A stretch of 64,000 nucleotides of DNA from a virus. Below the pieces are notes generated by a model. That model was not told where the DNA came from. It saw only the letters and a program-made list of their open reading frames with translations, and made no database searches. This document shows, piece after piece, positions 3,528-53,604 of this stretch. A program made the position numbers and the translations under genes. Location of the stretch: positions 33,257-97,256 of IMG/VR virus record IMGVR_UViG_3300030060_008361; one strand, written 5' to 3'. Numbering within the stretch: the first letter of the stretch is position 1; each line of letters starts with the position of its first letter.

Positions 3528-3528
3528 G

Positions 3529-24708: not shown

Positions 24709-24722
24709 GTAGAGGTACTAAA

Positions 24723-25181
24723 ATGGAGTTTTTAAATAGAAAGCCGCAGCTTCAACCAAAATGGCCACTTAGGGTCGGTCCCGAAGATGGACCATATGAA
24801 GCAATAAAAAATACTGTAGAATCCATAAACCAGAATTTTATATTTTTGTTACAAACGATCCCAGGTGAATGGCCTATGAATCCAGATTTAGGAGTAGGTA
24901 TAGCAAGGTATCTTTTCGAAGGTTACCGATCACCTGAATTAGATGAGTTTAAATCTAGGTTAAAAAATCAATTATCTAAATATTTGCCACAAATAAAATT
25001 AATAAATTCCAATTTTATACACTCCGATAGCGACCAGGATTCACTCACCACTATTTTAAGAATAACATATTCGGTAGAGTTGCTAGGCATAATTCAAGAA
25101 ATAGATTTTGGACTTGATAACTCAAATAAAACAAATGTCACCATTAGGTCTTCTAACTCAAAAATTGGAAAAGAATTATAG
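24723..25181 (+). CDS. gp25: Baseplate wedge subunit (T4 gp25/GPW-like)
   Basis: INQNFIFLLQTIPGEWPMNPDLGVGIARYLFE; QLSKYLPQI. Confidence 0.88.
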   Translation: MEFLNRKPQLQPKWPLRVGPEDGPYEAIKNTVESINQNFIFLLQTIPGEWPMNPDLGVGIARYLFEGYRSPELDEFKSRLKNQLSKYLPQIKLINSNFIHSDSDQDSLTTILRITYSVELLGIIQEIDFGLDNSNKTNVTIRSSNSKIGKEL

Positions 25182-25223: not shown

Positions 25224-27056
25224 ATGACAACAATAAATACTAAAATTACTAAAAAGAAAGTACCAGTGGATTATACCAAAAAGGGCTTTGAAGAAATAAA
25301 AGAAGATTTAAAAAGCCATATAAAAACATACTATCCAGATACGTATCAGGATTTTAGTAAATCATCTTTTGGTTCGATGATGTTTGATCTGGTTTCTTAT
25401 ATAGGAGACCAGCTTCACTATTATATAGATCACAATGCAAATGAAGCAAATCCAATGTTTTCAAAAGAGGTTTCAAATGTTTTTCAACATATTACAGCAA
25501 TAGGCGGCCAGCCTGAGACTACAGTATCAACTTTTGGACTAGTGGATCTTTATTTGCCAATTCCAGCAAAATCTATTGGAATTGGAGTAGACACAAATTA
25601 TAATTTTGTTATTCATGCTGGATCAACATATAGGACTCAGGGGGGGAACGTTTTCACACAAATGGAAGATGTATCAGTTAACCTGGCAAACTCAGAAATT
25701 ATTGGACACAAAACAAATACAGATGGGTCCAAACTAAGTTATTACTTACTAAAAGCAAAAATACCAATCACCTCTGGAGAAGTTAAAGATTTTGTTGTTG
25801 AAGTGGGTGAATATAGGAAGTTTTTAAAAATAGAAATACCTGATTCTGGAGTGACAGAAATAATAAAAATTCTTGACTCTGAGAAAAGGGAATACTATAG
25901 AGTAGATAATTTAACACAAGACACAATATATAAATCGGTCATCGACCCTTCTGTGGACAAAGATAGTCCAATTAGGGTTAGATTAAAAGCACAGCCAGTA
26001 CCTAGAAGATTTATAAAACAAACAGATTTAGATAGGACATTTATACACTTTGGCTATGGTTCTGGAGGGGACGAGACAACAAACTCTTTAGTTGATCCTT
26101 CAAAACTCGTATTAAAAAGAGCTGGCGGCGAATACATTTCTAGTCCTAAGCAAAACCCGTACAACATCTTAACGTCTAATGCGCTGGGCGTAGCACCGCA
26201 AAATACAACACTTACGATAACATACAGAAGTAACAGCAATCTTAATTCAAATGCCGCAGCAGGAACAATAAATCAGGTTTTAAACCCAATAATGTCCTTT
26301 AACAATGAACACTTGCTAGATGAGGCAAAAGTCTCATATATAAGAGACAATATTCAAATATTCAACGAACAGCCAATTAATGGCCATGTTACAATATCAA
26401 ATACAGAAGAGTTAAAAAAGAGGCATTTAGGTAATTATTCATCGCAAGGTAGAGCGGTAACTAAGCAAGATTATATAAGCGCTATATACTCAATGCCATC
26501 TCACTTTGGGGCAATTAAGAGAGCCTGTGTGGTTAGGGACAACAACGATTTAACAAGAAACCTTAATATATATCTAATATCTGAAAGTGCAGCTGGAAAA
26601 ATGGAAGCACCTTCTTTAATAGTAAAACAGAATTTGAAAACTTGGATAAATTCTATGAAAATGATATCAGATAGTGTTGACCTGTTTGATGCTCATGTCA
26701 TTAACCTTGCATTAGATCTTAAATTTCAAGTGTCACCGAGTTCTAACCCACAGACTCTGCTAACGGAAGTTAAAAGAAAAATTCACGACGAGCTGATGAA
26801 CATAGCACCAGACATAGGAGAGCCGTTTTACATAACAGAGGTTTATAGAATTTTGCGCTCTATACCAGAAGTTGTTTCCGTTCCGCAGAGAGATGGGGTT
26901 ATTGTTAGAAATGTTGTTGGCGGAGGCAGATACAGTAATAACTCCTATGACATAAGGTACAATATGTCAACAGATGAAAGTGTAATATATATACCTCAAG
27001 ACTCCATATGGGAAATAAAATTTTTGGACGATATTAGGGGAACGGTTACAAAATAA
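25224..27056 (+). CDS. gp6: Baseplate wedge protein (T4 gp6/baseplate J-like)
   Basis: DY....FEEIKEDL, YQDFSKSSFG, SYIGDQLHYYID, IHFGYG, RAVTKQDY. Confidence 0.88.
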   Translation: MTTINTKITKKKVPVDYTKKGFEEIKEDLKSHIKTYYPDTYQDFSKSSFGSMMFDLVSYIGDQLHYYIDHNANEANPMFSKEVSNVFQHITAIGGQPETTVSTFGLVDLYLPIPAKSIGIGVDTNYNFVIHAGSTYRTQGGNVFTQMEDVSVNLANSEIIGHKTNTDGSKLSYYLLKAKIPITSGEVKDFVVEVGEYRKFLKIEIPDSGVTEIIKILDSEKREYYRVDNLTQDTIYKSVIDPSVDKDSPIRVRLKAQPVPRRFIKQTDLDRTFIHFGYGSGGDETTNSLVDPSKLVLKRAGGEYISSPKQNPYNILTSNALGVAPQNTTLTITYRSNSNLNSNAAAGTINQVLNPIMSFNNEHLLDEAKVSYIRDNIQIFNEQPINGHVTISNTEELKKRHLGNYSSQGRAVTKQDYISAIYSMPSHFGAIKRACVVRDNNDLTRNLNIYLISESAAGKMEAPSLIVKQNLKTWINSMKMISDSVDLFDAHVINLALDLKFQVSPSSNPQTLLTEVKRKIHDELMNIAPDIGEPFYITEVYRILRSIPEVVSVPQRDGVIVRNVVGGGRYSNNSYDIRYNMSTDESVIYIPQDSIWEIKFLDDIRGTVTK

Positions 27057-28882
27057 TGACTATTAAAAGATATAACTCAGAAAAAGATAACACGATTATA
27101 AATGCCCTTAGGGAAAACTTGACCGCTAGAGGTACAGCCGCAAACCTTGGCTCATCAGATATACTTGAAGTTTTTTCTATTTATGGGCAATCAGCCACAA
27201 GTTCTTTAGAACAAGCAAGAATATTGGTTCAGTTTCCAATATCTTCAATTTCTGCTGATAGGGATAGTGGTATAATCCCCGCTTCTGGATCGGTTACCTT
27301 TAAATTAAAATTACACAACACTCCACATGGACAAACTACACCTAAAAAATACAACCTTATGGCTCATCCGATTGTAAGATCATGGACCGAAGGTGATGGC
27401 TTAGATATGGAACAATACATGGACACAGAGGCTAGCAATTGGATATCTGCTAGTGATGGGGTTGTGTGGCATTCAACGGGTTCGGATTATGCTAGTTCCT
27501 CATACGTCGACCCAGATATAGTTCCACTAGAGTATAAGCAGTATTTTGAGTCTGGAATTGAAAATATTGATATTGATATCACTGGAATAACTGAAGAGTG
27601 GATTAAGCATTACAAAGGAACCAAAACAGCAGCAACTGCAAGTATAAACTTTCTACAGAATCCTTCCGCAGACCAGACTATAAAAATATACTCCCACGAA
27701 GGAGAGGAGTATTTTTACACTTTTATAGCCGGATCCGGCTATTCTGTTAACAATGATGTGTTTCTGCAGTTATCAGGATCAACAGCCGCCACCGCAGAAG
27801 CGTTTGAAAACAGAATTAGATCAGATTTTGCCGGCAAGATTACAACTGAATTTAAAGAATCAGCAACAGTCATAAATTTGACCCAGTCAGTGGCTGGACT
27901 TCACGGAAACACTTATATCACAACAAACGCCCCAGCAAACACTATTAAAGTCGACGGCTTTGGCGGTGGAACAGGTATGCCAAATTATGGACTAATACTA
28001 AAACTCAGAGATGATTATGAAGATGGTTCAAGACTAAGGTCGTACTATACAAAAAAGTTTTATTCTAGAAGTTCTCATGAGTTCTTTCTGAAGCCTAAAG
28101 TAGAGGCCCAATGGGATGGTGCCACAAAAGACGATAGAAATTATATATTAAAGTCTAGCAGCTTGGCACCAGCAAGCGACAACTTAAACAATATCTACCT
28201 TTACAACAGAGTGAGGGGGAACCTGGTAGATATACCAAACACAGGTACGAGTATAATAGTTGAATTTTACCCAACTTTAGGAGGCTCTAAAGAAAATATA
28301 GTACAGGTTAGCGGACCAGCCGCAGATCACGTTTCGGCTAGCCGTGAAAGCGAGGGGGTATACAAGGCAACCTTTGCTTATTCCGGATCAGAAACAACCC
28401 TATATGATGTATGGTCTAGATCCACAAATGGAACAGAGGTTGAGTTGGTTACCGGTTCCGGGTTTACAGTATATACAGATCCTGTAGATGCCACATATTC
28501 AGTTCCAGATTATGTAGCAAATATAACAAACTTGAAATCTTCTTACTTACAGTCCGAAAAAGCGACCTTTAGAGTCTACACCAGAAATAAAAATTGGTCA
28601 CCAAATATATACACAAAAGCAACTCAAGACGCCCCGGTAAATAATATAAGAGATATGTATTATAAAATAACTAAAGTTTCGGACAATTATGAGGTAATAT
28701 CATATTCGACTGGAAGTAGTACTAGTTACTCTTCTCTTTCATACGATAAAGACGGCTCTTATTTTGATTTAGATATGGCGCTTTTACAAAAAAATAATGC
28801 CTATGAAATATCATTTGTTTTTAAAGACGGGGCTAATTATATAGAGCTACTAGAAAAGTTTAGGTTTAGAATTGATCCATGA
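27056..28882 (+). CDS. Baseplate/virion structural protein (DNRLRE-like beta-sandwich plus inserted module)
   Basis: DNTI, ARILVQF, RSWTEG, IDIT, NYGLILK, FYSR...KPKVEAQW; follows gp6. Confidence 0.65.
   Translation: MTIKRYNSEKDNTIINALRENLTARGTAANLGSSDILEVFSIYGQSATSSLEQARILVQFPISSISADRDSGIIPASGSVTFKLKLHNTPHGQTTPKKYNLMAHPIVRSWTEGDGLDMEQYMDTEASNWISASDGVVWHSTGSDYASSSYVDPDIVPLEYKQYFESGIENIDIDITGITEEWIKHYKGTKTAATASINFLQNPSADQTIKIYSHEGEEYFYTFIAGSGYSVNNDVFLQLSGSTAATAEAFENRIRSDFAGKITTEFKESATVINLTQSVAGLHGNTYITTNAPANTIKVDGFGGGTGMPNYGLILKLRDDYEDGSRLRSYYTKKFYSRSSHEFFLKPKVEAQWDGATKDDRNYILKSSSLAPASDNLNNIYLYNRVRGNLVDIPNTGTSIIVEFYPTLGGSKENIVQVSGPAADHVSASRESEGVYKATFAYSGSETTLYDVWSRSTNGTEVELVTGSGFTVYTDPVDATYSVPDYVANITNLKSSYLQSEKATFRVYTRNKNWSPNIYTKATQDAPVNNIRDMYYKITKVSDNYEVISYSTGSSTSYSSLSYDKDGSYFDLDMALLQKNNAYEISFVFKDGANYIELLEKFRFRIDP
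27617..27976 (+). repeat. Inserted ~120-aa module, copy 1 (TAATASI...TAATA...INLTQ..AG..GN...FGGG)
   Basis: Protein-level similarity to copies at 32350, 33820 and 40081. Confidence 0.65.
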
Positions 28883-31800
28883 GTGAATATAAAATTTTAG
28901 GTGACAACCAAGAAGAGCAAAGAAAACTTACAATTCTTGGCTCTGGAAAGTACGAAAGAATATCTGCTGATAGTAATGCTGCCTTCAACGAAGCTGCTGA
29001 GTCGAACAAGTATGTTGAAGAGTACAAGAAACTAGTTGAAAGAGTTTTACCGAATATAGACACAAGGGAGCCGAGCACTTTTGCTTTTTATGGTAGTGCA
29101 GAAAAGTATTATGAAAACTCCTTCAAATACATTCAAAATTCATATCCCTATGATGGCTCAAGACTGGAAAAAGTACAATGGTCCCTCAGCGCATCAGCAA
29201 TTGATTTGGCAATACTTCAACATGAGTACCCAAAAGAAACCGGCTTTGTAAACTTTTCTCCATCCGGATGGGGCACAATATCTACAACGTCTGGTAAGTA
29301 TGGTCTACCATCAACACAAGAATACATAAAATTTTCTGGAGGGCCATACGTTGGATCAGTATTTGATGCTTCCACCGGCCGCGAAAGCGGACTAAAAATA
29401 AATCCAACTCAAGGAAACACTTTGGAGTTTTGGCTTAAGAAAGACGAGTTTGCCACAACAAAGACAGATTCAGAGGTGGTTTTTGATTCCTATACCATTG
29501 ACTACGCCGAGGGAAACTCTTCTTACGGTAGATTTTTGCTAGAAGTTTCCTCAAGTGCGAATTCGCCATTTTATCTAACATACATGTCAGGCACAACAGG
29601 AATCAACAGAAGTCAAATCGGAGCCGGCACTACAGCTGCTACGGTAGCAGATGGTAACTGGCACCATTACGCTTTTGTTGTGTTTCATAGCAGTTCTCAT
29701 CTTTATACCGAGCTTTATGTTGACGGCAAATATGATTCAACTAAAACAACAGCTATAGCTTCAATGGGCGATGTAGAAGACTATTTTAACGGTACAATTG
29801 GCGCTCTGGCTACAACAAAAGATTCCCAAGGTGGCTTGGGGTATGGTAAGCTTGATGGATCTATAGATGAGTTGAGGTTCTGGAAAACAAGAAGAACAGC
29901 AAAGGATGTAGGGAACTACTTTGACTTCCCGGTTCATGGGGCAACAGACAAAGAACAAATAAACAGCATACTTGGATTGTACTATAAATTTAACGAAGGC
30001 GTACTATCGGACCCAAGCGCAGATAAAGTAATTTTGGATTATTCGGGAAGACTAAACAATGGAACTTTTGTTGGGTATACGTCTTCTTCTAGAAATACAG
30101 GGTCGGCTATAACATTAAGTCAAGACACGGTAACTACAGAAAAAGAACTAGGGGATCCCATAATAAACTCCAATTCGAGCAAAGTTACATCAGCCTTACA
30201 GGTCCTGAAAGATATCGCGAGCCCTCACGATGAATATAATAATTCCTCTATATTTAAATCTGTACCTCAATGGGCTTATGAGCCAGCGGCCGGCTCCAGT
30301 AACTTGGACAGTGAATTTTCTATTTTACTTCAAACGATGGCAAGCAAGTTTGATTCAATAAAACTTTTGATAGATGGTATACCGAGACTCGGGTTTAAAA
30401 CTTATTCAGACTTTACTTTTGCAAAAGGGTCTGTAAATTATACCCAAAACTTTGGTACTCTTCTTGGGTGCCAAAGCGACTTTGATATAGCATTTAGCAA
30501 CCTTGGAGAGACTGATAAGTTTTCAGCTCAAAATCTTCTATCTAGAAACTTTGATATTCTGGAATTACCCATAGTAAATAAGTCAAATTTAGACCAATAT
30601 TTGTATAATTTAAAATTTTCTAAGACCGATCCTACAACCGGGTTAGGGTCTTTCTTAGTGGATTCAAAATCAGAAGACATAAAGAATAAGATTCTAAACT
30701 CTATTTATGTAAATCTAGATAAAATATACAACACAAAGGGAACTCTATCTTCTTTTAGAAACTTGATTCGGTGCTTTGGTGTTGATGAAAAGTTGATTTC
30801 CCCAAATATGTATGGGAACAATGAGCAGATACCGATCGATAACACGCCGTTTATTGAGCCTGTTGATATAAACGCTCTGTGCCTAGATGACAAAAACAAC
30901 CAAGTAACACTTTTTCAGTCCTCTTCTACATCAACAGAAGATAGGCACTATATAGAAGGTAAAAGTTCTGGACCGATTTCTTTTGAGACCAGAGTTATAT
31001 TTCCAGAAATGGACTTATCTTCTGTAAGCCCAACGACCACAAATACTAGTATCTTTGGATTAAACCGAACAGAAACAACGCACATAGGCATTCCAGCTGC
31101 TAATCACTGCGGCTTTAGGGTTAGCGCTGTAAAGCAATCTTTACACCATAAATCAGCATACTTTACTTTATCTAGCTCAGCCGGAATTTTTGATGAAATT
31201 ACGACAGACTATTATAACAATGTATACAGCAATTCAAATTGGCACCTTTCTGTAAGGTTCTCAGAAGACACGTCAGTAAAACTATCAGATTTTAATGTAA
31301 AGGGCACTAAAAAATATAAAGTAGAGTTTAGTGGGCATCATTATGATTTAGATGTCTTACTTCATAGCTTTAACTTGTCATCATCAATAAGCCAAGCAAA
31401 TTATTCAAACTTTATACAAGCTAATAAAAGCGTATTCATAGGTGCTGAAAGAGCAGATATAACAGGATCATTAAGCAAAAAAACAGAGTGTAAATTCTTA
31501 AACTTTAATGTATGGGATGATTACTTAGAAAATACAGAACTTAAAACGCATGCTCAATCATATAACAATAACGGTCGCCTGCTGCCCATGCAGCAAGTCG
31601 ACAATAATCAATCTGACACTTCATTAAAGGGTGACACGCTTGTTTTAAATTGGCAATTTGAAAACGTGTCGTACAACGACACTAACACAACTTTGACAGT
31701 CACAGATAGCACTAGTGGGTCTTTAGGCGATGTAAACAAACTCGGAGTAATCAAAGGGTATAAATACCCAGGAACTACAACGGCTTATGGCAATAAGGCA

Positions 31801-34800
31801 GATATAGTAGATAAAGAACATTTAGGAAATATTACATACAAAGAAATAGATAACTTAATATCTCGCCCAAGAGTTGAAATAAAAGAAAGAGAAGTTGACG
31901 TTTTCAAGCTTGACAGTAGACCTGTTTCTTATACGTTTTCTTACGAAAAAAGCATGTATCAGATTGTCTCTAGAGAGATGCTTAAGATGCTTTCGGGTGT
32001 TTCCGTATTTAACAACTTGATAGGAGAGGTAGTCAATAAATATAGGGTTGATTACAAGTCACTTGAAAAATTAAGAGAAAGATTTTATAAGCAAGTAGAA
32101 AACGACATAGATTTTGAAAGATTTGTAGAGTTTTATAAGTGGATGGATTCATCCCTTGGGGGCATGCTTGAACAATTACAGCCGGCTTCTTCTAATATGA
32201 ACCTTGGAATTCAAGACGTCGTTGAGAGTCACGCTCTTGAGAGAAATAAATATGCCCACATGCTTCCTACTTTTGAGCACAAGGATCCTAAAATTGAAGG
32301 ACAAATATTAGGTATAAATGAGCTTCTTTACGACTGGGAACACGGCCATGCGACTCCACCGGCAGCATCTACCGCAACAATCACTTTTACCGGAACCGTC
32401 GCTGATCAACCCGAAGCTCTAATAATAACCTCCGTAGACGCAGATGGAGCAAGGACAACGAAAACTTACCTGGCAGCCGGCGGAAATGATGCCGCCAGTG
32501 GCCAATTCGTCCGTGAGGGTGGCGTCGCAGCCACTGCAGCTGGTCTTAAAGCAGCGATTGAACACAACGTGCGTGGCCATGGCAACAAAATCACAGTATC
32601 AGTTGACGGAGGCGTGGTAACCTTAACCCAAGCGGCAAAAGGCAAAGCTGGTAATGTATCCATCGGCGGAACCTTAAATAGTGATGGCAATGCTTCCGTA
32701 TCAGGCTTCTCAGGCGGCACTGGCCTAGACCAAGCTGAAAACTGCCTTTGGTGGCAAGATAGAGCAGAGAGAGATGGAGTGCTGACAATAGCAGGCGCAC
32801 CAAATAACAATAGAGAAATCCTAAGAGAAAGGACAAATAATATTTCTGTAAGTGGTTCAACTTATGTCTTGCGTAAGCTTATAAGACCATATAAAGTAAC
32901 AATGAATAAATCAACGTTGCTAGATATGGGCTCCAACAGAAATGCTAATAAAATACAAGGTTTCTACAAAATAGTAAACTCAAACCCACAAAAACAAATA
33001 AGCTTGAGTAAGAGCGATATATACGAGTTTAAAAAGTGCGACGATGTTACAGACCCACAAAAAGAAAGGCTGTATGTTGCAAAAACTAATACGACAGGAA
33101 CATCTGGCTACCTGGATGTTGATGCTGATGCAGCATTTCCGTTTAGTCTTTATAGTTCATCAGCTGAAAACAGGCAAGATTTTGCGGTTTTTCAGGATGG
33201 TTTAGCAGTAACCAACAATCACGATGACCAAAGAGCGTCCTTACAAGGTCCGTTTGTTAGAGAGAATGTTGGTGGTATGCCACACAGAAGGGTAAAATTT
33301 GGAACAGATAAGGATGAAAGACCAGAAGCATATGCTCTTTCGGCTAATAGTAATACTCTAACACTAAGCAGAGTGCCTCTAGGGTCTCCTAAATCACAAA
33401 TCTCGCTTGGCCAACAAGCGGTATATAACGTGACTAATATAAAGACAGACACCTTATCTAGTGTTAAGAAAGTTGGAAACTATGACAAAGCATACGAAAT
33501 AGTACAAATAGCCGGCAGAAAGTTAAACAACAGGCTCTTGACTATTAGTAGTAGCATACCTAACAGCCCAATAAGGGCGGGCTTTATAAAGGATACTGTT
33601 GATTATAAAATTGCTGACCGACCTAGAAGCGAGCATATTTTTGTAAGTAGATTTTCATCTCCCGGAGGCCCAGAGACCCATGCTGCAGCTGCCAGAGATT
33701 TTGAGTCAGGGGAGCTTTCAATATACAACACAGTAAACTATAGAAATTTATCAGTAAGGCAGCCACTAAACAAATTACATTCAGAGAAAAATGAAAAGTC
33801 AGGCTACCGTCTGGGCCATGGCACAACAGCTGCAACTGCAACTATAAAAGTCACCGACGCCGGCGGAGTGGGCCACGGCGAAGTTTTTAAATTGTCCACG
33901 TTTAACGGTGTTGAAATTACATACACCATTAATGGCGGAGTTGCGCAAGCAGCCGGTGGCGGCTCTGGCACCTCTGCAACAGTCGGTTTTTCAGGGGTTG
34001 GCGGCGGAGCAACCGGCAAGGTTAATGCAGCTAGCGCTATTGCTATAGCAATCAATGCCACCACCGGCGCCGGCTTCATAGCAGAGTCAGATGGTGTTGA
34101 TACTGTTACAGTGACACAGACACAACTAGGCGCCATAGGAAATAGAGTGAATGTTGATACAGTTAGTGGCGTAACTATTTCAAACTTTGCTGGTGGAAGT
34201 GATGGCATGCCATCTGTACATATGACGAACAGAAACTTATTCCACTCAGTTGTGGACAATGAGATTGACAACGCCGCAACAAAATCAGACAATTTCTATG
34301 CTCAGCACCCAATACCACAAAATGACATTCAGTATGCTTGGATAACTGCTAGTACCACAACAGGAAAAACGGACTTTGTAGAAAATAATCTGGGCTTTGG
34401 CCACCAACACACGTATTCTACTGGAAGTAAAAAAGCTTTAGAATTTACAACTAGTAAGACATTCCAAAACCCTGTACTGGTACAGGAGTTTATCGGTTCC
34501 GGCTCTGTAGCGGATTCAAACCCAGCAAATATGCTTGGGTATTCTATCACTTCTCATGGTGACTACGTGGCTGTTGGCGAGCCTGATGCGGTAATAGATG
34601 GGTTTAGAGAAGCCGGAAAAGTACATATTTACAAAAAACTAGCAGGAAGATTTAAAGAAGTACAAGTGCTTCAAGGTTCTGATGCTCGCAGCGGCGCAAC
34701 GAGTAGTGAAAAACAGTTTGGCTTTTCGGTGTCTATGAAGAAAAATATACTTGCTGTTGGCTCAAGGCAAAGTAATACCGCTAGTTACGATGATGGCCAT

Positions 34801-42384: not shown

Positions 42385-42407
42385 AACCGGACCAGACTGG
42401 AGCAGAT

Positions 42408-46200: not shown

Positions 46201-49200
46201 GGACGAAACTGTGATAACCGAAGACGTGTCACAAGCAGTGTTGGACTCAATATTGAGTAATGAGGACTTCGATATAATTAGAGAAAATACCAGAGATAAT
46301 AATGATAATTTTCTCTTTAGGGAGGATGCGATTCCTCTTCTTGCGGATACTATTGCAAGATCAGTATTTATGAACGTATACATTGAGCCGGCTTCGATGG
46401 CTGACGCACTGACTCCTGTCCCTGATCCCAATGCCATCACTTCCAACGGCTTCATACCTCGCCAAAGATTCTACCGCGAAGAGTCTGACTCTTCCGGCGC
46501 GTCAACGACGACTCAGACTGATACAGGGAATACTGAAACAGAGACAACCATAAGCGAGCTTTATGCTTCAGGTCAGTTACATGCCGCGGGCGAGGCCACA
46601 GCCAACGGAGATTTATCCGAGCCTCTCGGTATTTTCACTGTTGGTGGCGCCCACGACACCGCTATCGCTGCCGGAGGCCTTGATCTTGGCGCTATCCTTT
46701 CATCAACAGGGCCAAGTTTAGCCGGCGGCCCCCTTGCTGCTGGTTCACTCGGTGCCGGCTTATTTGCTGGGGGTGCTGTTACTGGACTGGCGGGGCGCTC
46801 GGAGGCAGTGGGCCCGCCAGCGGATTCGGAGGAGGGTCACCAATTGGCTATTGAAGATATTTGCAAAATTCCGCCACCACCACCACCTCCACCTGGAGGG
46901 CAAAATGGAGGAGGAAACCAGCCTGGGAACGGTGAAGAAGGAGATGGCGTCCCAGAAGTTGTACCACAACGCTTAGAAGCGGGACAGGCGCCTTATCCGC
47001 AACCATACAGGCCAGTTGGCAATCAAAATCAAGGAGCACTTGGTAATGACCATATACCCAGACCCGGCACAACACCTAGGTTCGCCGCGGCCTCAAGAGA
47101 GATAACAACTATTCCTAGTCAATTCTTTTTATCACAAAACTTTAACACACAGTTGGTTTATGAAAGATTGGAGATGCACAAACCTGAAAACGAAAGGGGT
47201 AAGAGGTCGCCTTTTCATGGAAGTGTTTGGTTCACTAATCACAGACCAAATCCGCAACCAGATAACATATCCGATGATGCAGATCTCTTTCGCTGGAGTC
47301 AAATGGCCATATGGGCATCTGATAATAATTCTGAGAAGTTTTTTATGCCAGCCCTTGCCTTTGCCCCGAACCTGACGGCGCTTGGCATTCTCGGTATGTT
47401 TTTTATCAATGATCTAGATTTTTACGAAGATCTCTTAGAACAGCTTGGCATTCCCCTCGACCAATTGCCATTGCCAATAACCAAGCCGGCCAATCCTGTT
47501 GGTATTATTTCGGATATGCCGAACTGGCCCGAGGCGCCCATATTTACGGTGTCCCCCTTCGCCCCAGCGAGAGGGGGAGTCGGTGGCCTTGATCTGGCGC
47601 CAAACTATACATTGGAAAATGTTATAAATGTTGTAGGTCCAATGCATACTACAGAAACATTGTGGTTTAGTCTTCTCAACAGAGGCTTAGTCGGATCCGC
47701 GGGCATGCCTGGCTTTACTGTTAATGATCGATTAACCTTGGCTGGAGAAAAGTTTATAGAGAATATGTTTCCTAGCGCAATAAAGAATAGTAATCAATTA
47801 TCTGAAAAACAAAAATACGATATGTTTTTGGAGATATTTTTAAATGGCAAGGAGTCTGGTCAATGGGATCAATTTACTAATCTTCCAAACTCTTTTAGTT
47901 CGACAGAGGATTATTATAGAACCCCAAATATTACTAGGGGCAACCTATACTTAGATTACGTTTTTGATGCTCCTGTTGCTTTTTTTGAGGATGAATTAAA
48001 CAACATACTTCTTTCACCATTTCATAGTGCAAAAATAAAAGTACAAGTAGACAATGTAGAAAACTTAGTATCTGGTCGATTTAAAAACATACATCAGATA
48101 CCTAATTTGTATTACTATTACAATTTTTTGGAAATAGAAAAAAAATATGCTAAACCAGGGGGAAGACTAACAAGGGGCAATATAGGAGACAGGGTACCAG
48201 AAGGTGAATGGGATTATGTTATCACAACACTTTCTATTATTGACGAGTATCGCAAGCATGGCCGCATAAGAAAGAGTGAATTAGAGACGCCGCGAACTTT
48301 AAAATTCCCCTCAGACAGAGTCAAAAACCTGCCACAAGTTAATGAATTTATAAAAAAATATGCTGTTAATTTTGTTGAAATAACAATAAACACTAAGCAG
48401 GGCGGGCCGATTAATGCCATGCTTCAAAGAAACAAAATGGACAGAGTTGTTTTAGAAAAAATGGCACCATCATATGATTCGATTAACGAGGCACCACCGA
48501 ATGATTTTTTTGGAATAGGTGCCATTGACTCTGCTCTTATTAAGTCAAGTACTTATGTTTTAGATGACTCATTCCTAGGGATAGAAGAAGAGGGTAATCA
48601 AAACTCTATTTTAAATACTATTAACGATAGAACAGAAAGTTTTGTACATACAAAAATGGTACCTGGGCTCTTTAAAAACCTTAAAGATGATATACTGGCT
48701 GCGGAGGGTCTTGAGTATCAAGAGGTTGATGAATATAGTTATCCTCTAAGGTACACCCATTGTGAGGATAAAAACTTACTAAAACTGGAAGAATCGATTA
48801 GAAGCCAAATTTTTATGTCACAAGCAGAAACTTTTATTGCCGAGTCTTCTGTAGGCAGAAATTATGCTAATATTTTAGAAGGAAAAAAAGCATATTCAGA
48901 AGTTGTAGGATATAAGGTTAGCAAGTTTCAGTGGGACGAAGAGAGTGAAACATACTCAGATCAACCAGTACAAGAATTGTACTTTATGGATAGTGATGAA
49001 GTAGAGACAATTAGCTATGTAGATACCCAGGTTTTACCATTTACTAAATATAAATATTCCATAGAAACAATAAACTTAGTTTTAGCGACCAGGTACGAAT
49101 ATACAGGAGTTGCCATTCAATCTCCACAGTTTCAAATATCAGTGGTATCACATCTGGATCCACTTTTGATCACCGCTCCTTTTTATGAGGAAGTGGTAGA

Positions 49201-50191
49201 TGTTATAGACCATCCACCTTTGGCTCCTCAAGTTAACTTTTTGCCATATCAGGGTGTTGATGATAGGTTTGGTGTCTTATTAACATCAAATTATGGAGAA
49301 GTCAAAGAAAAAATAATAAGCTTAAATCCTGAGAACGACAATTTTGATTTTGGTGAAGCTTTGTATAAAACAGACTCACTGCCATCAGCCTTTCAGTGGT
49401 TTCGACTAGATCGTCCACCGGAAAAGTATTCAGATTTTTTCTATTCAGAGAATGATTTTGTAGAAGCTAGCAACAAAACTGGTTTTATAACTCAGGATAT
49501 TGAGCCAAATAAATATTATTATTACATATTTCGAACATGGGATAATATGGATATTGAAAATCCAGACTATTCTAAAGCATTGTCCTCTAATCCAACAGAT
49601 GTTTTTAGAGTTAGAATAGTTAGTTATCAAAATGGTATATTTATGGAAGTGGAAGTCTATGATATGTTTGAAAAAAGAAAAGAAGTAAAGGTAGATTTTG
49701 AAAGGCTTTTAAAAGTACAGCCAAGCTTTAAGCAGACTCTTATTAATTTTAAACAAGCTTTCGACGAAATATATAACAGTGGCAGAATAACGATCCCAGA
49801 AAACAGCCTAACTAATCTAAGAAAAAGATTAAACTTAATAAGTAATGAAAATAAAAATTTTGTAGCAGACGAATTTGAATTTCAAAAGGCTGCGCCTGGT
49901 ATAGAGTTAGTTTCCATAGGTACGACCCCTGGTGAGTCCGATAATTATATATGGAATAAGAGGTATAAGTTAAGAATAAAATCTAAAAATTCTGGTAAGG
50001 CTGTAGATTTAAATATAAAGTTTGTCCAAGAAAAACAAACTCTATCAAATAATGACGAAAGCGGCCCCCCGCCGGAAAGCGAATACGAAGTGGTCCTGGG
50101 GCCGGATGAGCGAATTGAGGAAGTCGACGGGAATCTATATGTCGTCTTTGGCGATGACAACGACCCCAGCGATGGAGGTTCATATACTTGA
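43265..50191 (+). CDS. Large (2308 aa) structural protein with central Ala/Gly/Pro-rich region and C-terminal FnIII-like domains
   Basis: SYVDTQVLPFTKYKYSI and DIEPNKYYYYIFR..SSNPT FnIII-like strands; Pro8 tract. Confidence 0.65.
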   Translation: MPADVLTVQALENFKNSIPYGLDMNFESALPPYKINSVVAAVRSEEGSTVGIIDVNCSISRDLTLKYDSWIGSSEFLKYVNFYFILAGSPDSRSGVGQDHVNALYYPDTRAFGLSMLNPDFSDSLSNWDRPWAADISFDQLYQQYGFLSTGYINANDVYNGQRSTFSYADASGQGQFDIDSGRYTGTPLDNDEDMDVITASLRGRSASTVSQTVGRETFFNIVLPFFIPDSFFERFGEKSLSVYSFCQLDINTLASDYNLGQYISNLSVFGGPLKYEKILKWNNLHQQWSKSTTRSIFQDSQGNPYSGLTHFHGKDPETGVGTGPDGYTGWMEGPASGHMAGRKKLSRRTMPNNKVVMSTQGSALDYEGMPLSHRFSVGPLSGVENPLEITINNFATPYGNLRLGEDLMRALRSETGLAEIIKASPESGRVIKSELEKFQDRIFKRLVLRSQKRPSELKMFSNENNPNLQSFNAETFNYSLAAVLNLEDLVASNSKLGHLIDFHRDNIAGSSIEEIRNDVSKSNSYDFITLCLLRCNTQNVQLYRKRVENQPSFNNRSSAPIYGDYNTNVVKRKFIFNELSDGAIPGQTLDSIIYNIDGIPSLSNVDSQGRATISREATSAIDCTLSFGNFKNSPEGMIVPMSIQDYDLFYETSYGNYKYELELNLTDGPVEYMKQAVSEFSVLLDRYRSYVSEYERYIIAQTGNMIAGPAEFSRAMRINMAVAMNSEGNPDQKYGPLLNQLVAYYSFLLFVLTRSSALLDTEMKEELISSLQYKNYSFPTVRFFLDKCNTLEHTLRTMVHGKDIDIENTLNMGTHKRSASFNVSKEHPASAMNIKGELPNVMVAHPPGTVFIDYSNIDLRNPEISDSYRLFYIHRTRYGESLDIKTARIRRGPDGSIYVKPNAVPTRVDIAHANEVPAHDGQGIAMDAAPAANNAIDAAAAAVDNAMDMLGGMTWSSLVSKAASLNPDLQSGCGDILEDETVITEDVSQAVLDSILSNEDFDIIRENTRDNNDNFLFREDAIPLLADTIARSVFMNVYIEPASMADALTPVPDPNAITSNGFIPRQRFYREESDSSGASTTTQTDTGNTETETTISELYASGQLHAAGEATANGDLSEPLGIFTVGGAHDTAIAAGGLDLGAILSSTGPSLAGGPLAAGSLGAGLFAGGAVTGLAGRSEAVGPPADSEEGHQLAIEDICKIPPPPPPPPGGQNGGGNQPGNGEEGDGVPEVVPQRLEAGQAPYPQPYRPVGNQNQGALGNDHIPRPGTTPRFAAASREITTIPSQFFLSQNFNTQLVYERLEMHKPENERGKRSPFHGSVWFTNHRPNPQPDNISDDADLFRWSQMAIWASDNNSEKFFMPALAFAPNLTALGILGMFFINDLDFYEDLLEQLGIPLDQLPLPITKPANPVGIISDMPNWPEAPIFTVSPFAPARGGVGGLDLAPNYTLENVINVVGPMHTTETLWFSLLNRGLVGSAGMPGFTVNDRLTLAGEKFIENMFPSAIKNSNQLSEKQKYDMFLEIFLNGKESGQWDQFTNLPNSFSSTEDYYRTPNITRGNLYLDYVFDAPVAFFEDELNNILLSPFHSAKIKVQVDNVENLVSGRFKNIHQIPNLYYYYNFLEIEKKYAKPGGRLTRGNIGDRVPEGEWDYVITTLSIIDEYRKHGRIRKSELETPRTLKFPSDRVKNLPQVNEFIKKYAVNFVEITINTKQGGPINAMLQRNKMDRVVLEKMAPSYDSINEAPPNDFFGIGAIDSALIKSSTYVLDDSFLGIEEEGNQNSILNTINDRTESFVHTKMVPGLFKNLKDDILAAEGLEYQEVDEYSYPLRYTHCEDKNLLKLEESIRSQIFMSQAETFIAESSVGRNYANILEGKKAYSEVVGYKVSKFQWDEESETYSDQPVQELYFMDSDEVETISYVDTQVLPFTKYKYSIETINLVLATRYEYTGVAIQSPQFQISVVSHLDPLLITAPFYEEVVDVIDHPPLAPQVNFLPYQGVDDRFGVLLTSNYGEVKEKIISLNPENDNFDFGEALYKTDSLPSAFQWFRLDRPPEKYSDFFYSENDFVEASNKTGFITQDIEPNKYYYYIFRTWDNMDIENPDYSKALSSNPTDVFRVRIVSYQNGIFMEVEVYDMFEKRKEVKVDFERLLKVQPSFKQTLINFKQAFDEIYNSGRITIPENSLTNLRKRLNLISNENKNFVADEFEFQKAAPGIELVSIGTTPGESDNYIWNKRYKLRIKSKNSGKAVDLNIKFVQEKQTLSNNDESGPPPESEYEVVLGPDERIEEVDGNLYVVFGDDNDPSDGGSYT

Positions 50192-50202
50192 TAGCTTATA
50201 TT

Positions 50203-50247
50203 ACTAATTATAAAAAAGGATTATTTTGAATAAAAATACTATTTATT
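50203..50247 (+). promoter_or_regulatory. Two candidate late-promoter motifs (ACTAATTATA 50203-50212; ACTATTTATT 50238-50247)
   Basis: Located in the largest intergenic gap, upstream of AGGAG RBS and ATG 50286. Confidence 0.55.
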
Positions 50248-50285
50248 AATGATTTTCAGTATTTTTTTTAAACAGGAGTATTTAA

Positions 50286-51353
50286 ATGGCTTTTTTAGAC
50301 AATTCGGGTGATATTATACTTGATGCGGTATTAACAGATACTGGCCGTCAAAGAATGGCGCAGGGCACTTTTAGGATCACAAAATTTGCCCTTGGAGATG
50401 AGGAAATAGATTACGGTCTTTTTAACGAAAACCACCCCAGCGGATCCGCTTTTTATGATCTAAAAGTAATGCAAACTCCAGTTTTAGAATCTTTTACTAA
50501 TAACACGTCTTTGATGAAAAGCAAGCTTGTGACAATGACAAGAAACAACATTCTTTATTTGCCGATGCTCAAGTTGAACGACAATGTAGATAACAGGACG
50601 TCCGACGCGAATGCGAATTATAGCTTTCAGGGGTATATACTTCTAGCGGATTTAAACACAGAAAGCAATGGCGACGCCGCCAATACTATGTTCCCCCTTA
50701 GAGAGGGGCTACTCCGCGGCGCCAGCCGAGAGACACAAAACCAAGATCTAACAAACCACATTGCTATTGATCAGGGTATTGATACTAGTGATGGTGGTAT
50801 ATCTTTTAGACAAACAATGCCTTCGGACTTAGTTGAGACAGCGTACTTAGTAAAAATGGACCACAGGCTTTTGCGACTTGAGGTTCCTACGTTTGATTTT
50901 GGTACAACAGATGCAGTAACTAATCAATTCATAGATGACGATGGCATAGCTACATATTATGTGGTTTTGGGCGATGGGTATAACGCTATCGAGGGCCCAC
51001 CCCCAATCGGGAAACAATATCAAGACGACCGAGAAAGACAAAGAATTGTAACAAACAACCCACCGGTCGCTGAGCAAAATAATGCCGCATCTGATTACCA
51101 TGAAGTCTTCGCTGGCCCTCTTGGTAGCATCTTAAGGATATCTCCAAAGACATCTCATCTTGTCCGCCAAGGTACCGCACTATTTGATGAGCTAGGCACT
51201 TCAGCTAATGGGTCCTCTTTTCAGATGAGCAGCCGAGCCGGCTTGACTAAAAACATAGGAAATTACCAACACATTGATACGGTTATAAGCATTGTTGGCG
51301 TGACAACTGGATATGCCATCGATGTACCGATAAGAATAATAAAGAAATCATAA
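50286..51353 (+). CDS. Baseplate/tail structural protein (N-terminal half of a DUF3751/P2 gpH-like motif)
   Basis: AVLTDTGRQRMAQG..RITKFALGD. Confidence 0.6.
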   Translation: MAFLDNSGDIILDAVLTDTGRQRMAQGTFRITKFALGDEEIDYGLFNENHPSGSAFYDLKVMQTPVLESFTNNTSLMKSKLVTMTRNNILYLPMLKLNDNVDNRTSDANANYSFQGYILLADLNTESNGDAANTMFPLREGLLRGASRETQNQDLTNHIAIDQGIDTSDGGISFRQTMPSDLVETAYLVKMDHRLLRLEVPTFDFGTTDAVTNQFIDDDGIATYYVVLGDGYNAIEGPPPIGKQYQDDRERQRIVTNNPPVAEQNNAASDYHEVFAGPLGSILRISPKTSHLVRQGTALFDELGTSANGSSFQMSSRAGLTKNIGNYQHIDTVISIVGVTTGYAIDVPIRIIKKS

Positions 51354-51368
51354 GTTTAGGAGATAGTA

Positions 51369-52400
51369 ATGGCTAATACATTTTTCAAGAGTTTTTCGGA
51401 ATCCGACAGAACTTCATCAAGAACGCTTCTCCATGAAGCCATACCGATAACGGGAACTCTTGTTTCGGGTACTTACAATAACAATGAAAACATAAAATCA
51501 TTTTCACATGGAATGTTTAAATCGGTTTATGACTATCCGTATTTAAGTTCATCAGCCAACCACATATTTGACGTATCCTATGGGTATTCTAGCGCATCAA
51601 CTTATCTTGCCACAACTAATGTTCAACACGATAAGAAGAGAAGTATGTATAATCAGATGGCACAAGTCTTAGCTGGTTATGATACCAGAAGTAAGGTTAG
51701 GGCTTTCGATTCAGATGGCAATTACTCTACCACTGGGGACAAGTTTCACGACGCATATTTTGTTAGTTTTTCTAGATTGCTTGTAAAAGACGAAATAAAG
51801 AAGGGAAGTTTTTCAATGACCTTCGGAACTGCATCAGCATATGCCACTGCATTAAATGATGTTTTAACAATAACTGATGTCGAAGCAACTGGTAATTATA
51901 AAATTAATTCACCAGCCGGAGAATTCGGCTTACTTAAAGATCACGCGGGCAACAAATACGGACTTATCTATTATCAGGCCGGCCTTGCTGTATTAACAAG
52001 TAGTGTTCTTGGCGATGGCGATGGCACTCATGTTAGGTTGAATACTAGTAATTATTCTCAAAAACAAATGACAACCGGCTCAACACTTGATGCTATAAAT
52101 GATGGATTTATTCATAGAATAGCTAACATATCCTTTAACAACACAACAGAGCTTAATTCTACAATTTATTTCTGTAGAGCGAATCATAATGAATTTAACT
52201 ATAGCTCTAATCCAACTTACATTACTGGTAGTAAAATAGTAGTTAAAGCTAACGACCTTATGATGCCACCAAGATCATATGTTACAACCGTAGGGCTCTA
52301 TTCGGCTGACAATGCTTTATTGGCTGTGGCAAAGCTTTCCGAGCCATTAAGAAAAGATCCAACTAACGAGTTGACCTTGAGGGTCAGACTGGACTACTAA
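51369..52400 (+). CDS. Baseplate/tail structural protein (paralog of 52402 ORF)
   Basis: IKKGSF, GLIYYQAG, EFNYSSNPT, YVTTVGLY..DNALLAVAKLSEPLRK..LRVRLDY. Confidence 0.65.
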   Translation: MANTFFKSFSESDRTSSRTLLHEAIPITGTLVSGTYNNNENIKSFSHGMFKSVYDYPYLSSSANHIFDVSYGYSSASTYLATTNVQHDKKRSMYNQMAQVLAGYDTRSKVRAFDSDGNYSTTGDKFHDAYFVSFSRLLVKDEIKKGSFSMTFGTASAYATALNDVLTITDVEATGNYKINSPAGEFGLLKDHAGNKYGLIYYQAGLAVLTSSVLGDGDGTHVRLNTSNYSQKQMTTGSTLDAINDGFIHRIANISFNNTTELNSTIYFCRANHNEFNYSSNPTYITGSKIVVKANDLMMPPRSYVTTVGLYSADNALLAVAKLSEPLRKDPTNELTLRVRLDY

Positions 52401-52401
52401 A

Positions 52402-53604
52402 ATGTCATACAAAAGGTTTGCCCCAAAAGATCTAGTTTATAGTACTCTTGTGGCCAAGCCAGAGCACAAATTTATAGTACATAGTGGATCTGTGTACAAA
52501 GATAATGAAATATTACCTGATGGCGACTTTAGCAATAAGGTAAAACATATTTCTGACGGGCAAGTCAGCCTCCATGAACTAAATATTAACAGACCTGCTA
52601 ACTCCCTTGTGTATGGATTCATAAGTAAAGACTCTACCAGATACTCCTATAGGACGATATCTACATCCAACTTTGATGATACATCACAATTTCAATATGG
52701 CAACATAATAACTCAAAGCTACCCTATAAAGGCCGGCCTTTCTAGGATATATGTGCCTTCTGGGCAAGAATATGATAACGTAACTTTTGCAAATGTTGAT
52801 ACGCCATCATTTGCCGCGGCCAATAAGAAATATATTTTGGCACTAAAGAATGCTCTAAACCATAGAGAACAATTTGGCCAAAGCTTTTCTTTTGGAAATA
52901 TCGGCACCAGCTCTGTTAACATGGTGTGCGTGCCTGGTATATTTTATGGATCCAAGATTGACAAGGGCAGTATTCAATTAAACTACTATATAACGGGCGC
53001 TCTCATGGCTCAGCTAGAAGATGAAAACAAAGACGGTGTTCTGGTTGAGACTTATGGCCCACAATCAGGCTCTGTTGCTGGTGTGGCGTTATATGAACAT
53101 GGCCTAATGTTGCTCACCGGCGATTGGGACCTTTCTTCTGGTAATCATACTGATAAATTTTTTAGTGCCACTCCAAGTGCACCATCATGGCTTTCATTTG
53201 GAACAGGAATGCCAATTGTAGGACAACCTATAGCAAGTAGTTCGGTTTCTGCGTCGGCATATGGAATAAACTTTAAGGGTCTAAATAAGATACCGACTTT
53301 GACTATGTTTTCTTATGCTAATAAAAATGAGTGTAATTTTTCAAATAATCCAACCTTTCTGGAAACAGGATCTTACGGCTCAACTTCTACCAACTCTTCA
53401 TACCAGCAAAACTCTCAAAAAATAAAAAATATAGTTAAATCAGATTTCGCTAATTACAGCGCATCATTTGAAAGCACTACTTTTATTTCTAAAGTTGGGA
53501 TTTATGATGAAAACAAAAATTTGATAGCAATAGCTACATTGGCGAATCCAATAAAAAAGACCCCATCTAGAGACTACATGATAAAAATGAGAATGGATTT
53601 TTAA
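52402..53604 (+). CDS. Baseplate/tail structural protein (paralog of 51369 ORF)
   Basis: IDKGSI, GVALYEHG, ECNFSNNPT, FISKVGIYDENKNLIAIATLANPIKK..IKMRMDF. Confidence 0.65.
   Translation: MSYKRFAPKDLVYSTLVAKPEHKFIVHSGSVYKDNEILPDGDFSNKVKHISDGQVSLHELNINRPANSLVYGFISKDSTRYSYRTISTSNFDDTSQFQYGNIITQSYPIKAGLSRIYVPSGQEYDNVTFANVDTPSFAAANKKYILALKNALNHREQFGQSFSFGNIGTSSVNMVCVPGIFYGSKIDKGSIQLNYYITGALMAQLEDENKDGVLVETYGPQSGSVAGVALYEHGLMLLTGDWDLSSGNHTDKFFSATPSAPSWLSFGTGMPIVGQPIASSSVSASAYGINFKGLNKIPTLTMFSYANKNECNFSNNPTFLETGSYGSTSTNSSYQQNSQKIKNIVKSDFANYSASFESTTFISKVGIYDENKNLIAIATLANPIKKTPSRDYMIKMRMDF

Follow-up and report, generated by a model that had tools for sequence, protein, structure and literature searches.

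Outer baseplate proteins of an uncultured marine T4-like phage, and of the whole lineage to which it belongs, carry the short ordered motif hydrophobic-[ST][GAS]S three to eight times above expectation. The phage is represented by a 97-kb viral contig (IMG/VR record IMGVR_UViG_3300030060_008361), of which the right-hand 64 kb (positions 33,257 to 97,256), here called the window, was analysed; from left to right the window holds the end of a sugar-gene island, a baseplate/structural module and replication genes. The enrichment is confirmed as real, and it acts on the protein and not on the DNA. It may represent a short linear motif that selection maintains at the β-strand ends and in the loops of outward-facing baseplate proteins, and gene content indicates that it is tracked at the lineage level by a conserved glycosyltransferase, GTb, which is encoded outside the window. 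We favour tentatively, with somewhat less than even confidence, the reading that enzymes of the phage's glycan island O-glycosylate the virion and that the motif would be their acceptor or recognition site.

Motif enrichment in the window

The baseplate module encodes, in this order, a 514-amino-acid (aa) protein, the 4693-aa giant p4693, gp25, gp6, p608, p4501, p285, p2308, p355, p343 and p400. The motif was counted as a 3-mer, [ST][GAS]S, and as a 4-mer, in which a hydrophobic residue (PHI; I, L, V, F, Y or M) precedes the 3-mer at position -1, and the expected counts were obtained from shuffles. The original prediction, made from a reading of the sequence, had proposed about 12 copies of the 3-mer in the 608-aa open reading frame (ORF), about 7 each in the 343- and 400-aa ORFs and about 40 in the 4501-aa ORF. 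The recount gave 12, 7, 7 and 39, with 3.4 (z 4.8; estimated earlier as roughly 3), 2.0, 2.5 and 19.2 (z 4.7) expected, respectively, while p285 contains 2 (0.3 expected). The hydrophobic residue precedes 22 of the sites of p4501 (5.8 expected, z 6.9). When these five focus proteins were pooled, the shuffle test yielded 67 3-mers against 27.6 (z 7.8), 33 4-mers against 8.3 (z 8.8) and 16 TGS tripeptides against 3.5 (z 6.7; p 9e-7, or 7e-3 after correction for 8000 tripeptides), and the observed values were reached by 0 of 2000 shuffles. The 4-mer excess agrees with the earlier remark that the sites usually follow I, L, V, F, Y or M. Within the whole 97-kb contig, 16 of the 20 TGS tripeptides lie inside the five focus proteins, which account for about 20% of the residues.

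The proposed selectivity of the motif for a subset of the baseplate proteins was likewise borne out. The 3-mer, described as almost absent from gp6 and sparse in the 4693-aa giant and the enzymes, occurs 0 times in gp6 (1.6 expected) and 5 times in p4693 (11.0 expected; hydrophobic-prefixed sites 0 against 3.4, TGS 0), and is at expectation in the window enzymes. It occurs 3 times in p2308 (5.7 expected) and once in p355 (0.8 expected), and in the rest of the proteome the ratio is about 1.0. The neighbouring virion proteins in the window contain one 4-mer against 6.5 expected, a modest under-representation, as 19 of 2000 shuffles were equally low.

The excess remains when shuffling is confined to stretches of 20, 40 or 100 aa, which removes local composition, and internal repeats or common domains were discarded because blastp at 1e-3 detected only one homology among the focus proteins, that of the p343 and p400 C-termini (23% identity). 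The serine codons at the motif sites are both AGY and TCN; a DNA-level cause, and with it a nucleotide-level motif, is therefore ruled out. Tripeptides of S, T, G and A clump at 1.55x in the focus proteins, which explains only a part of the excess. The sites of p4501 are dispersed and form no tandem arrays, and each focus protein shows only one or two short gaps between sites.

The consensus context is PHI-[ST]-[GAS]-S-PHI; the motif is ordered, and Ser is required in the last position. In the focus proteins of the window, TGS was found 16 times and each of its five permutations 4-6 times, and in the orthologs of the motif-rich families 435 times versus 57-165 for the permutations. TGS is the rarest permutation in the control families (12 versus 27-62), where TAS is likewise the rarest of its set (13 versus 36-53). 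Enrichment reached 5.4x for x-G-S versus 2.5x for x-G-T, and 2.9x for x-A-S versus 1.0x for x-A-T, with [ST][GAS]T and S[GA]T at expectation. Hydrophobic residues occupy position -1 in 49-62% and position +3 in 43-49% of the sites, the background being 31%.

The motif in related phages

The complete relatives of the phage have genomes of 185-194 kb. Its nearest cultured phages, Flavobacterium phage vB_FspM_immuto (immuto), Microcystis phage Mel-JY01 and Rhodothermus phage RM378, are about 25-32% identical by protein, as is the 484-kb uncultured phage LR756508. The ortholog survey covered about 80 related marine IMG/VR contigs. In the motif-rich families (p343, p400, p285, p608 and p4501), the 3-mer reached 3.2-3.9x, the 4-mer 5.3-8.2x and TGS 5.6-8.1x, and in the motif-poor families (p355, p2308, gp6 and p4693), the 3-mer reached 0.1-1.0x, with the 4-mer and TGS not above expectation. 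The values for the 3-mer were 3.6x in 84 orthologs of p343 (4-mer 8.0x), 3.85x in 108 orthologs of p400 (TGS 8.1x), 3.7x in 66 orthologs of p285 (4-mer 8.2x, TGS 7.2x), 3.15x in 120 metagenomic homologs of p608 (TGS 7.7x, [ST][GAS]T 0.93x) and 3.2x in the orthologous fragments of p4501 (4-mer 5.7x). The orthologs of gp6 contain 1 motif against 8 expected; the 3-mer stands at 0.59x and TGS at 0.39x in 72 orthologous pieces of p2308, and the 4-mer at 0.40x and TGS at 0.23x in 75 orthologs of p355.

The excess in the complete relative G003 is confined to the proteins after gp6 and to a single protein of 1259 aa encoded at another place. The other 116 ORFs together stand at 0.99x, and no ORF of capsid, sheath or tube size was flagged as enriched. 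The proteins downstream of gp6 contain 67 4-mers in immuto (11.3 expected) and 37 in Mel-JY01 (6.5 expected), and gp6 of both phages is at expectation. No motif excess was found in T4 gp7-gp12, gp34-gp37 and Hoc or in T5 pb1-pb10, for which the baseline is small. The excess is therefore not generic to fibres, Ig-like or FN3 tail proteins, and a general property of such folds was rejected as its cause. Functional short linear motifs are recognised by over-representation in proteins that share a function but no detectable homology; the motif qualifies, as its excess is significant after correction for composition in several such families and recurs in independent genomes.

In the fibre proteins of the relatives, the motif forms tandem arrays with a period of 5, 6 or 9 residues and regular aromatic residues, e.g., [ST][AG]S[YF]xx, and a module A-[AE]-I-TGS-L-x-V recurs; neither the periodic arrays nor this module are present in the window's own proteins. 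The immuto 'tail spike' (1053 aa, L098:25993-29151) has 60 [ST][GAS]S with a tandem spacing of 5, 6 or 9, regular Tyr/Phe and 28% Ser+Thr. Its C-terminal region resembles the heads of trimeric autotransporter adhesins (BpaC 7o23, E 6e-10), with a weak match to YadA_head.

Structural placement and conservation of the sites

The motif columns of 73 p343 and 76 p608 orthologs were mapped on AlphaFold2 models, using DSSP states only. The p343 model has a predicted local distance difference test score (pLDDT) of 79; in comparisons of its fold with the PDB, Foldseek gave nothing at E<=0.001 and VIA-align gave Z<=3.8. The p608 model (pLDDT 84, predicted TM-score 0.81) suggests a chain of Ig-like β-sandwiches. 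In these models, the sites are predicted to lie at the C-terminal ends of strands, immediately ahead of a strand, in loops or at helix N-caps, with only 3 of 57 motif columns in p343 and 5 of 61 in p608 placed in mid-strand, and their structural contexts appear heterogeneous, with no single repeated supersecondary unit. The bias towards strand boundaries is clear in p343 and modest in p608, where it covers 67% of the columns against a background of 50%. The original prediction had expected surface turns; strand ends and loops were indeed seen in both models, as far as DSSP states tell, with the weaker bias in p608.

Individual sites differ in conservation. In p343, LSSSA is kept in 69 of 73 and LTASV in 67 of 73 sequences, and many further sites are variable; LTGSW is kept in 81 of 93 p400 sequences, and about nine p608 sites are kept in at least 85% of 76 sequences, many others being variable. 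By a column-cluster proxy, forward T[GA]S falls into 34 column clusters versus about 17 for the permutations, yet it is about four times as frequent. By this measure, the origins of the forward motif number about 1.6-2 times those of the permutations. In p355, forward T[GA]S is found in 6 column clusters versus 13-21 for the permutations.

A C-terminal block of p343 and p400 (...NEFNYS.NPT[YF]... VGLY...LLAVAKLS.P..K..., window 51369-53604) is common to the marine phages, immuto, Mel-JY01, RM378 and LR756508. The loop after its NPT[YF] element has [ST][GS]S in eight of nine p343-family paralogs from GTb-positive phages, and reads DPTS and STNS in two GTb-poor homologs.

The conserved GTa-GTb pair

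The start of the glycan island is constant across the relatives: a nuclease gene (PD-(D/E)XK) is followed by GTa (433-483 aa), GTb and the variable part. GTb (412 aa, contig 23518-24756) lies 8.5 kb upstream of the window and matches PF00534 (Glycos_transf_1) with 30.7 bits versus a cut-off of 26.4, and also PF20706 (GT4-conflict); with regard to its acceptor, the sequence offers only weak, generic matches to GT-B glycosyltransferases.

GTb is full-length in all eight complete relatives of the marine clade, in which GTa is present and the motif excess is strong. The same combination was found in immuto (GTb E 2e-45) and in Mel-JY01 (GTb E 7e-50, GTa split), so that each phage with candidate acceptor sites, i.e., the eight complete relatives, immuto and Mel-JY01, encodes glycosyltransferases. 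Among 50,697 phage records, none beyond these contained GTb. LR756508 has GTa and lacks GTb; its 3-mer is at about 1.9x, and its 4-mer and TGS are at expectation. In RM378, GTa is present, the counterpart of GTb is a divergent ORF without a detectable catalytic domain, and the 3-mer is at about 1.5x. LR756508 and RM378 have gp6 and/or p343-family proteins in common with the window phage, and their proteins are therefore comparable. T4 has no GTa, no GTb and no motif excess. GTa, which occurs in all Far-T4 phages compared, serves as an internal control and has more than 590 relatives in IMG/VR. A search for gp6 of T4 or RM378 to root the lineage tree gave no match.

GTa of the window phage is split into two parts, an N-terminal and a C-terminal Rossmann half (G000:C1:22264-23515, frame 1 then 2, about 10-11 kb upstream of window base 1), and that of Mel-JY01 is split at the same inter-domain point (L103:4442-5933, annotated as 190-aa and 302-aa genes); in G003 and immuto, GTa is one gene of 433-483 aa. 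The split could represent a real two-polypeptide GT-B or a recurrent frameshift. LR756508 carries a cytidylyltransferase gene two genes after GTa (L108:4561-5199), and RM378 (L107) a UDP-galactopyranose-mutase-like gene within its baseplate region; hence, glycan genes of some kind seem to be universal in phages of the Far-T4 type.

The glycan island and the proposed Maf-like transferases

Upstream of the window, the island contains a run of GT-B genes, an RmlD-like reductase, two NeuB paralogs, a second GNAT, a CMP-transferase, a PseB-like dehydratase (just before the window; 274 bits, below the 408-bit equivalog cut-off) and sub-threshold MptE/Maf-like ORFs. Together with the window part, the pathway genes comprise three NeuB paralogs (PF03102, 231-264 bits; 30-32% identical to one another), DegT, two GNATs, CTP_transf_3, a formyltransferase and PIG-L, i.e., a complete gene set for the biosynthesis of a cytidine monophosphate (CMP)-activated nonulosonate of the pseudaminic (Pse), legionaminic (Leg) or neuraminic (Neu) type. 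Two tandem paralogous nonulosonate modules (window 11-6340 and G000:C1:26778-33265) each have NeuB, GNAT, a PhyH-like dioxygenase and an MptE-like ORF; with three NeuB paralogs in total, two distinct nonulosonic acids may thus be produced by the phage.

The original prediction had named the nearby Maf-like transferases as candidate writers of a modification signal. All matches to PF01973 are below its cut-off of 34.6 bits, the best being those of a 673-aa ORF (28.7), a 268-aa ORF (23.7) and ORF 5609-6340 (15, E 8.5e-4). The last is 24% identical to the upstream 268-aa MptE-like ORF (E 0.004), and one of its Atlas neighbour clusters is 20% MptE-like. ORF 4729-5616 has no match in Pfam, PHROG or NCBIfam; its structural neighbours in the ESM Atlas fall into MptE-like (TM 0.58), GT29 sialyltransferase-like (0.51-0.70) and WaaZ (0.53) clusters. 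The Atlas neighbours thus give only a lead to a transferase identity of these two window ORFs, and nonulosonate transfer by this phage is plausible from its gene content.

The 673-aa ORF (G000:C1:24753-26774) is a GT-B glycosyltransferase, GTc, fused to a weak MptE/Maf-like domain. In this contig, the Maf-like domain is thus carried by GTc, the paralog next to GTb, and not by GTb itself. The GTb frame is about 680-700 aa long in four of the six NeuB-positive relatives (G018, G008, G006 and G013) and in none of the eight NeuB-negative ones, with weak Maf-like matches in two. This limitation of the long frames to NeuB-positive relatives links GTb to the nonulosonate step, and the fused frame suggests a bifunctional glycosyl/nonulosonyl enzyme.

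NeuB occurs in 6 of 18 related records and in 2 of 8 complete genomes, and weak Maf/MptE-like matches occur in this contig and in three relatives, none of which is complete. Six complete relatives without NeuB or PF01973 matches show the same motif excess, 3-4.6x. NeuB and Maf were therefore rejected as correlates of the motif, and the transferases proposed as its writers do not track it. Relatives without any glycan genes were sought within the clade and not found, as GT1/GT4 genes are present in every complete relative; the five NeuB-less complete relatives searched all have two or three of them, usually with other sugar genes. Of the earlier proposal, the modification signal remains viable, with some comparative support from GTb; the Maf-like proteins as its writers are not supported.

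Interpretation of the motif

If the motif is an acceptor site, a soluble GT-B of the conserved GTa-GTb pair would add the first sugar, late in infection, to the Ser hydroxyl of a folded turn, the best candidate for the priming enzyme being the GT4-family protein GTb. Variable downstream enzymes would then extend the glycan. In this phage, the cap would be a Pse/Leg-type nonulosonate, made by the three NeuB paralogs, PseB, DegT, GNAT, the formyltransferase, the PIG-L deacetylase and the CMP-transferase, and added by the Maf/sialyltransferase-like proteins, namely the GTc-Maf fusion, the 268-aa ORF and ORFs 4729-5616 and 5609-6340. We favour glycosylation because the ordered motif occurs in co-functioning families without detectable mutual homology, at least five of them plus the fibres of the relatives, because it is absent from the equivalent proteins of unrelated phages and weak in GTb-poor relatives, and because there is a hint of avoidance in the neighbouring virion proteins.

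A number of observations weigh against glycosylation. Elsewhere in the proteome, this motif of three to four residues is not avoided, which is unexpected for a promiscuous cytoplasmic writer, and the periodic, aromatic-containing fibre arrays of the relatives look like a structural repeat. The bias to strand boundaries in p608 is modest, and many sites are strongly conserved, as expected of structural residues. With about 1.6-2 times the origins and about four times the occurrence of its permutations, the forward motif owes more to retention than to recurrent gain. Two sites (PHI-SGS-PHI and G-SGS) are also kept in LR756508 and RM378, both GTb-poor; the latter, with its divergent GTb-like ORF, is not a clean negative. 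Very few deep lineages underlie the link between GTb and the motif, which could go back to one event in an ancestor; a search for GTb-less members with GTa as bait found none, GTb adjoining GTa in all 68 loci that had sufficient sequence downstream of GTa. As GTa and GTb follow a PD-(D/E)XK nuclease gene, their target may also be a non-virion one, such as a polysaccharide or even DNA.

Many of these points would also be expected if the motif were a lineage-specific, unmodified structural element, in which Thr or Ser closes a β-strand, Gly, Ala or Ser allows a tight turn and the final Ser serves as a cap for what follows. Such an element would be inherited and reused in β-sandwich and fibre modules shuffled between the outer baseplate and fibre proteins of the lineage. 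This explanation is the main rival and only slightly less probable than glycosylation. Residue propensities favour Ser over Thr in turns and Thr at strand ends, which the motif fits, and antibody V-kappa frameworks contain LSASV and FSGSGSG. The modelled positions at strand C-ends, before strands and at helix N-caps, the Ig-like model of p608, the retention of many sites across about 50% sequence divergence, the two persisting sites and the arrays and A-[AE]-I-TGS-L-x-V modules of the relatives are all in its favour. However, the heterogeneous contexts offer no single supersecondary unit to be reused, the enriched families have no detectable mutual homology, and neither the fibres nor the Ig-like or FN3-rich tail proteins of T4 and T5 show the excess. 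Moreover, the homologs in LR756508 and RM378 keep the fold-defining blocks mostly without the motif, and a structural element does not predict the under-representation in neighbouring virion proteins.

Direct attachment of nonulosonic acid to the motif Ser/Thr by the Maf-like transferases beside the baseplate module, in the manner of Maf on flagellin, seems unlikely. The large Pse/Leg-type pathway, with its three NeuB paralogs, PseB, DegT and CMP-transferase, and the four ORFs with weak MptE/Maf-like or sialyltransferase-like signals would suit it; however, NeuB and Maf-like genes are confined to 6 and 3 relatives, respectively, the six complete genomes without both are just as enriched, and the PF01973 matches stay below the curated cut-off. 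The Atlas neighbours, in addition, include glycan-extending sialyl- and Kdo-transferases, so the capping of a glycan fits them as well as direct transfer to protein. It is slightly less probable still that the motif is read by another partner, either through another Ser modification (phosphorylation, acylation) or by a fibre or baseplate assembly chaperone docking on PHI-[ST]-x-S turns. A short ordered motif enriched in co-functioning proteins without detectable homology is the classical signature of a recognition motif, and nothing chemical ties this one to sugars, but no kinase, acyltransferase or chaperone was found to track it, the sole co-varying lineage-specific gene seen being a glycosyltransferase. 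Chance is very improbable and effectively refuted: although the motif was chosen after the sequence had been viewed, in Ser/Thr/Gly-rich proteins whose small residues clump, the pooled z of 7.8-8.8, the significance of TGS after correction for 8000 tripeptides, the local shuffles, the permutation controls and the replication in independent phages all speak against it.

Extended to the lineage, glycosylation would mean that a very large and mostly uncultured aquatic Far-T4 group writes sugars on PHI-[ST]-[GAS]-S turns via its core pair of soluble GT-B enzymes, that the motif is placed in folded domains of outward-facing baseplate and fibre proteins and avoided in inner proteins and that the variable island sets the glycan, a proposal that we regard as possible but more doubtful than not. 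If true, the glycan chemistry of each phage would be set by the hypervariable island, giving here a formylated or acetylated nonulosonate cap, and no sequon-directed glycan coat would have been described before on the tail apparatus of a phage. The literature search found no paper that deals with virion glycosylation in the lineage. An acceptor site would make virion glycosylation predictable from sequence in widespread marine and freshwater phages, with the proteins and residues named for mass spectrometry, and would explain why 15-20 kb are spent on variable sugar pathways beside the structural genes. Such glycans may shield the receptor-binding apparatus from proteases, non-productive adsorption or host glycan-directed defences, or may tune adhesion. 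Even if purely structural, the motif is a sequence signature that parts outer from inner baseplate proteins in a lineage with almost no annotated virion homologs. The cultured members immuto and Mel-JY01 make the question directly testable.

Gene layout and other features

The features of the window that bear on the motif are listed in Table 1.

Table 1. Coordinates of glycan and baseplate features in the window (position 1 is the first base of the window).
Feature	Position	Strand	Basis
Window part of the glycan island: PhyH-like, DegT aminotransferase, NeuB synthase, formyltransferase, PIG-L deacetylase, GNAT (second nonulosonate module)	11..4727	+	Pfam
295-aa ORF, candidate CMP-(non)ulosonate transferase; first 'Maf-like' gene of the original prediction	4729..5616	+	ESM Atlas structural neighbours
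243-aa ORF, weakly Maf/MptE-like; second 'Maf-like' gene of the original prediction	5609..6340	+	sub-threshold PF01973
p4693 giant, motif-poor contrast	10593..24674	+	
gp6-like baseplate wedge protein, motif-free contrast	25224..27056	+	matches phrog_6, baseplate wedge subunit
p608, outer baseplate protein directly after gp6, motif-rich	27056..28882	+	
p4501 giant baseplate protein with Laminin_G_3 and FG-GAP domains, motif-rich	28879..42384	+	Pfam
p285, small baseplate-region protein, motif-rich family	42408..43265	+	
p2308, large virion protein, motif-poor contrast	43265..50191	+	
p355, baseplate-region protein, motif-poor contrast, signs of avoidance	50286..51353	+	
p343, conserved baseplate/fibre-attachment protein, motif-rich	51369..52400	+	
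p400, paralog of p343 (C-terminal domain in common), motif-rich	52402..53604	+	

More than 1400 metagenomic homologs of p608 were found, one of them deposited in a metagenome-assembled genome labelled Maribacter sp. (Flavobacteriia). This homolog and the kinship to a Flavobacterium phage hint at a Bacteroidota host, or else the former reflects mis-binning.

The sequence CTA[TAC]TTAT, a candidate late promoter, lies 11-47 nt 5' of eight plus-strand gene starts, including those of gp25, p4501 and p355. It has 16 occurrences, half of them at gene starts (window 24700, 28833, 50239 and 60415-60431; contig 3665, 5515 and 12061). A motif scan did not find CTAHTTAT in the gap-free glycan island, a result that is uninformative on expression timing, and in a motif scan the T4 late promoter TATAAATA preceded no gene start.

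Among the replication genes, a single 1045-aa ORF (window 55891-59028) joins an Mre11-like phosphoesterase (Metallophos) to a Rad50/SMC ATPase, i.e., it is a gp47-gp46 fusion. In G003 and Mel-JY01, ORFs of like size (1051 and 1066 aa, respectively) come after the primase gene, matched by size and place only.

Comparison with known systems

Phage-encoded glycosyltransferases reportedly O-glycosylate the virions of the mycobacteriophages Che8, Corndog and Myrna (Freeman et al. 2023, Cell Host Microbe). In common with the proposal made here, a lytic phage would use its own glycosyltransferase genes to decorate structural proteins on Ser/Thr in the cytoplasm. The mycobacteriophage targets are said to be capsid and tail-tube subunits with Ser/Thr-rich C-terminal tails, whereas the candidate acceptors of the window phage are dispersed turns in folded proteins, and only outer baseplate and fibre proteins are enriched, not, in the complete relative G003, ORFs of capsid, sheath or tube size. 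The glycan island is also much larger and variable.

GtfA/GtfB, acting on serine-rich-repeat proteins, and SdgA/SdgB, acting on Ser-Asp repeats, are GT4 cytoplasmic Ser-O-glycosyltransferases of Gram-positive adhesins. The system described here resembles them in having a GT4 enzyme, GTb being a member of the GT4/Glycos_transf_1 family, two adjacent GT-B genes and short Ser motifs (SAS, S-x-S) as putative acceptors, and the dense [ST][AG]S arrays in the fibres of the relatives may be likened to acceptors of this type. GTb is, however, not an equivalog of GtfA or SdgA (TIGR02918 18 versus 574.6 bits; NF047880 16 versus 800; GtfA PDB 4pqg E 0.06), and the motif of the window is dispersed in folded domains, unlike the disordered low-complexity repeats that GtfA/B and SdgA/B modify.

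Maf (PF01973) O-nonulosonylates flagellin in Campylobacter, Helicobacter, Magnetospirillum and other bacteria on surface Ser/Thr, often beside hydrophobic residues and with no strict sequon. The window phage shares with these systems a Pse/Leg-type CMP-nonulosonate pathway beside candidate MptE/Maf-like transferases; unlike in Maf systems, its Maf-like signals are sub-threshold and sporadic, the motif is independent of them, and the candidate acceptors are baseplate proteins, not flagellin.

Sequons read in folded domains are represented by C-X-S-X-[PA]-C of POGLUT1 and by the targets of POFUT1/2 on EGF and TSR repeats, and the bacterial autotransporter heptosyltransferases TibC and AAH also belong here. 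The likeness to POGLUT1-type sequons is one of analogy only and consists of a short Ser consensus that would be read only in a folded β-rich domain, so that other proteins of the phage would have no need to avoid the motif; the POGLUT1/POFUT and TibC/AAH enzymes and their substrates are unrelated to those described here.

Virus-encoded glycosylation is known from chlorovirus capsids, where it is N-linked at atypical sequons, and from mimivirus fibrils. The best PDB match of GTb is B736L of chlorovirus NY-2A (3oy2, E 0.0065), and GTc matches B736L with E 0.0013, the similarity being marginal in both. Chloroviruses and mimiviruses are, unlike the window phage, eukaryotic giant viruses with different linkages, and the feature that they would have in common with it is a variable glycan gene cluster of their own, the products of which coat the virion surface.

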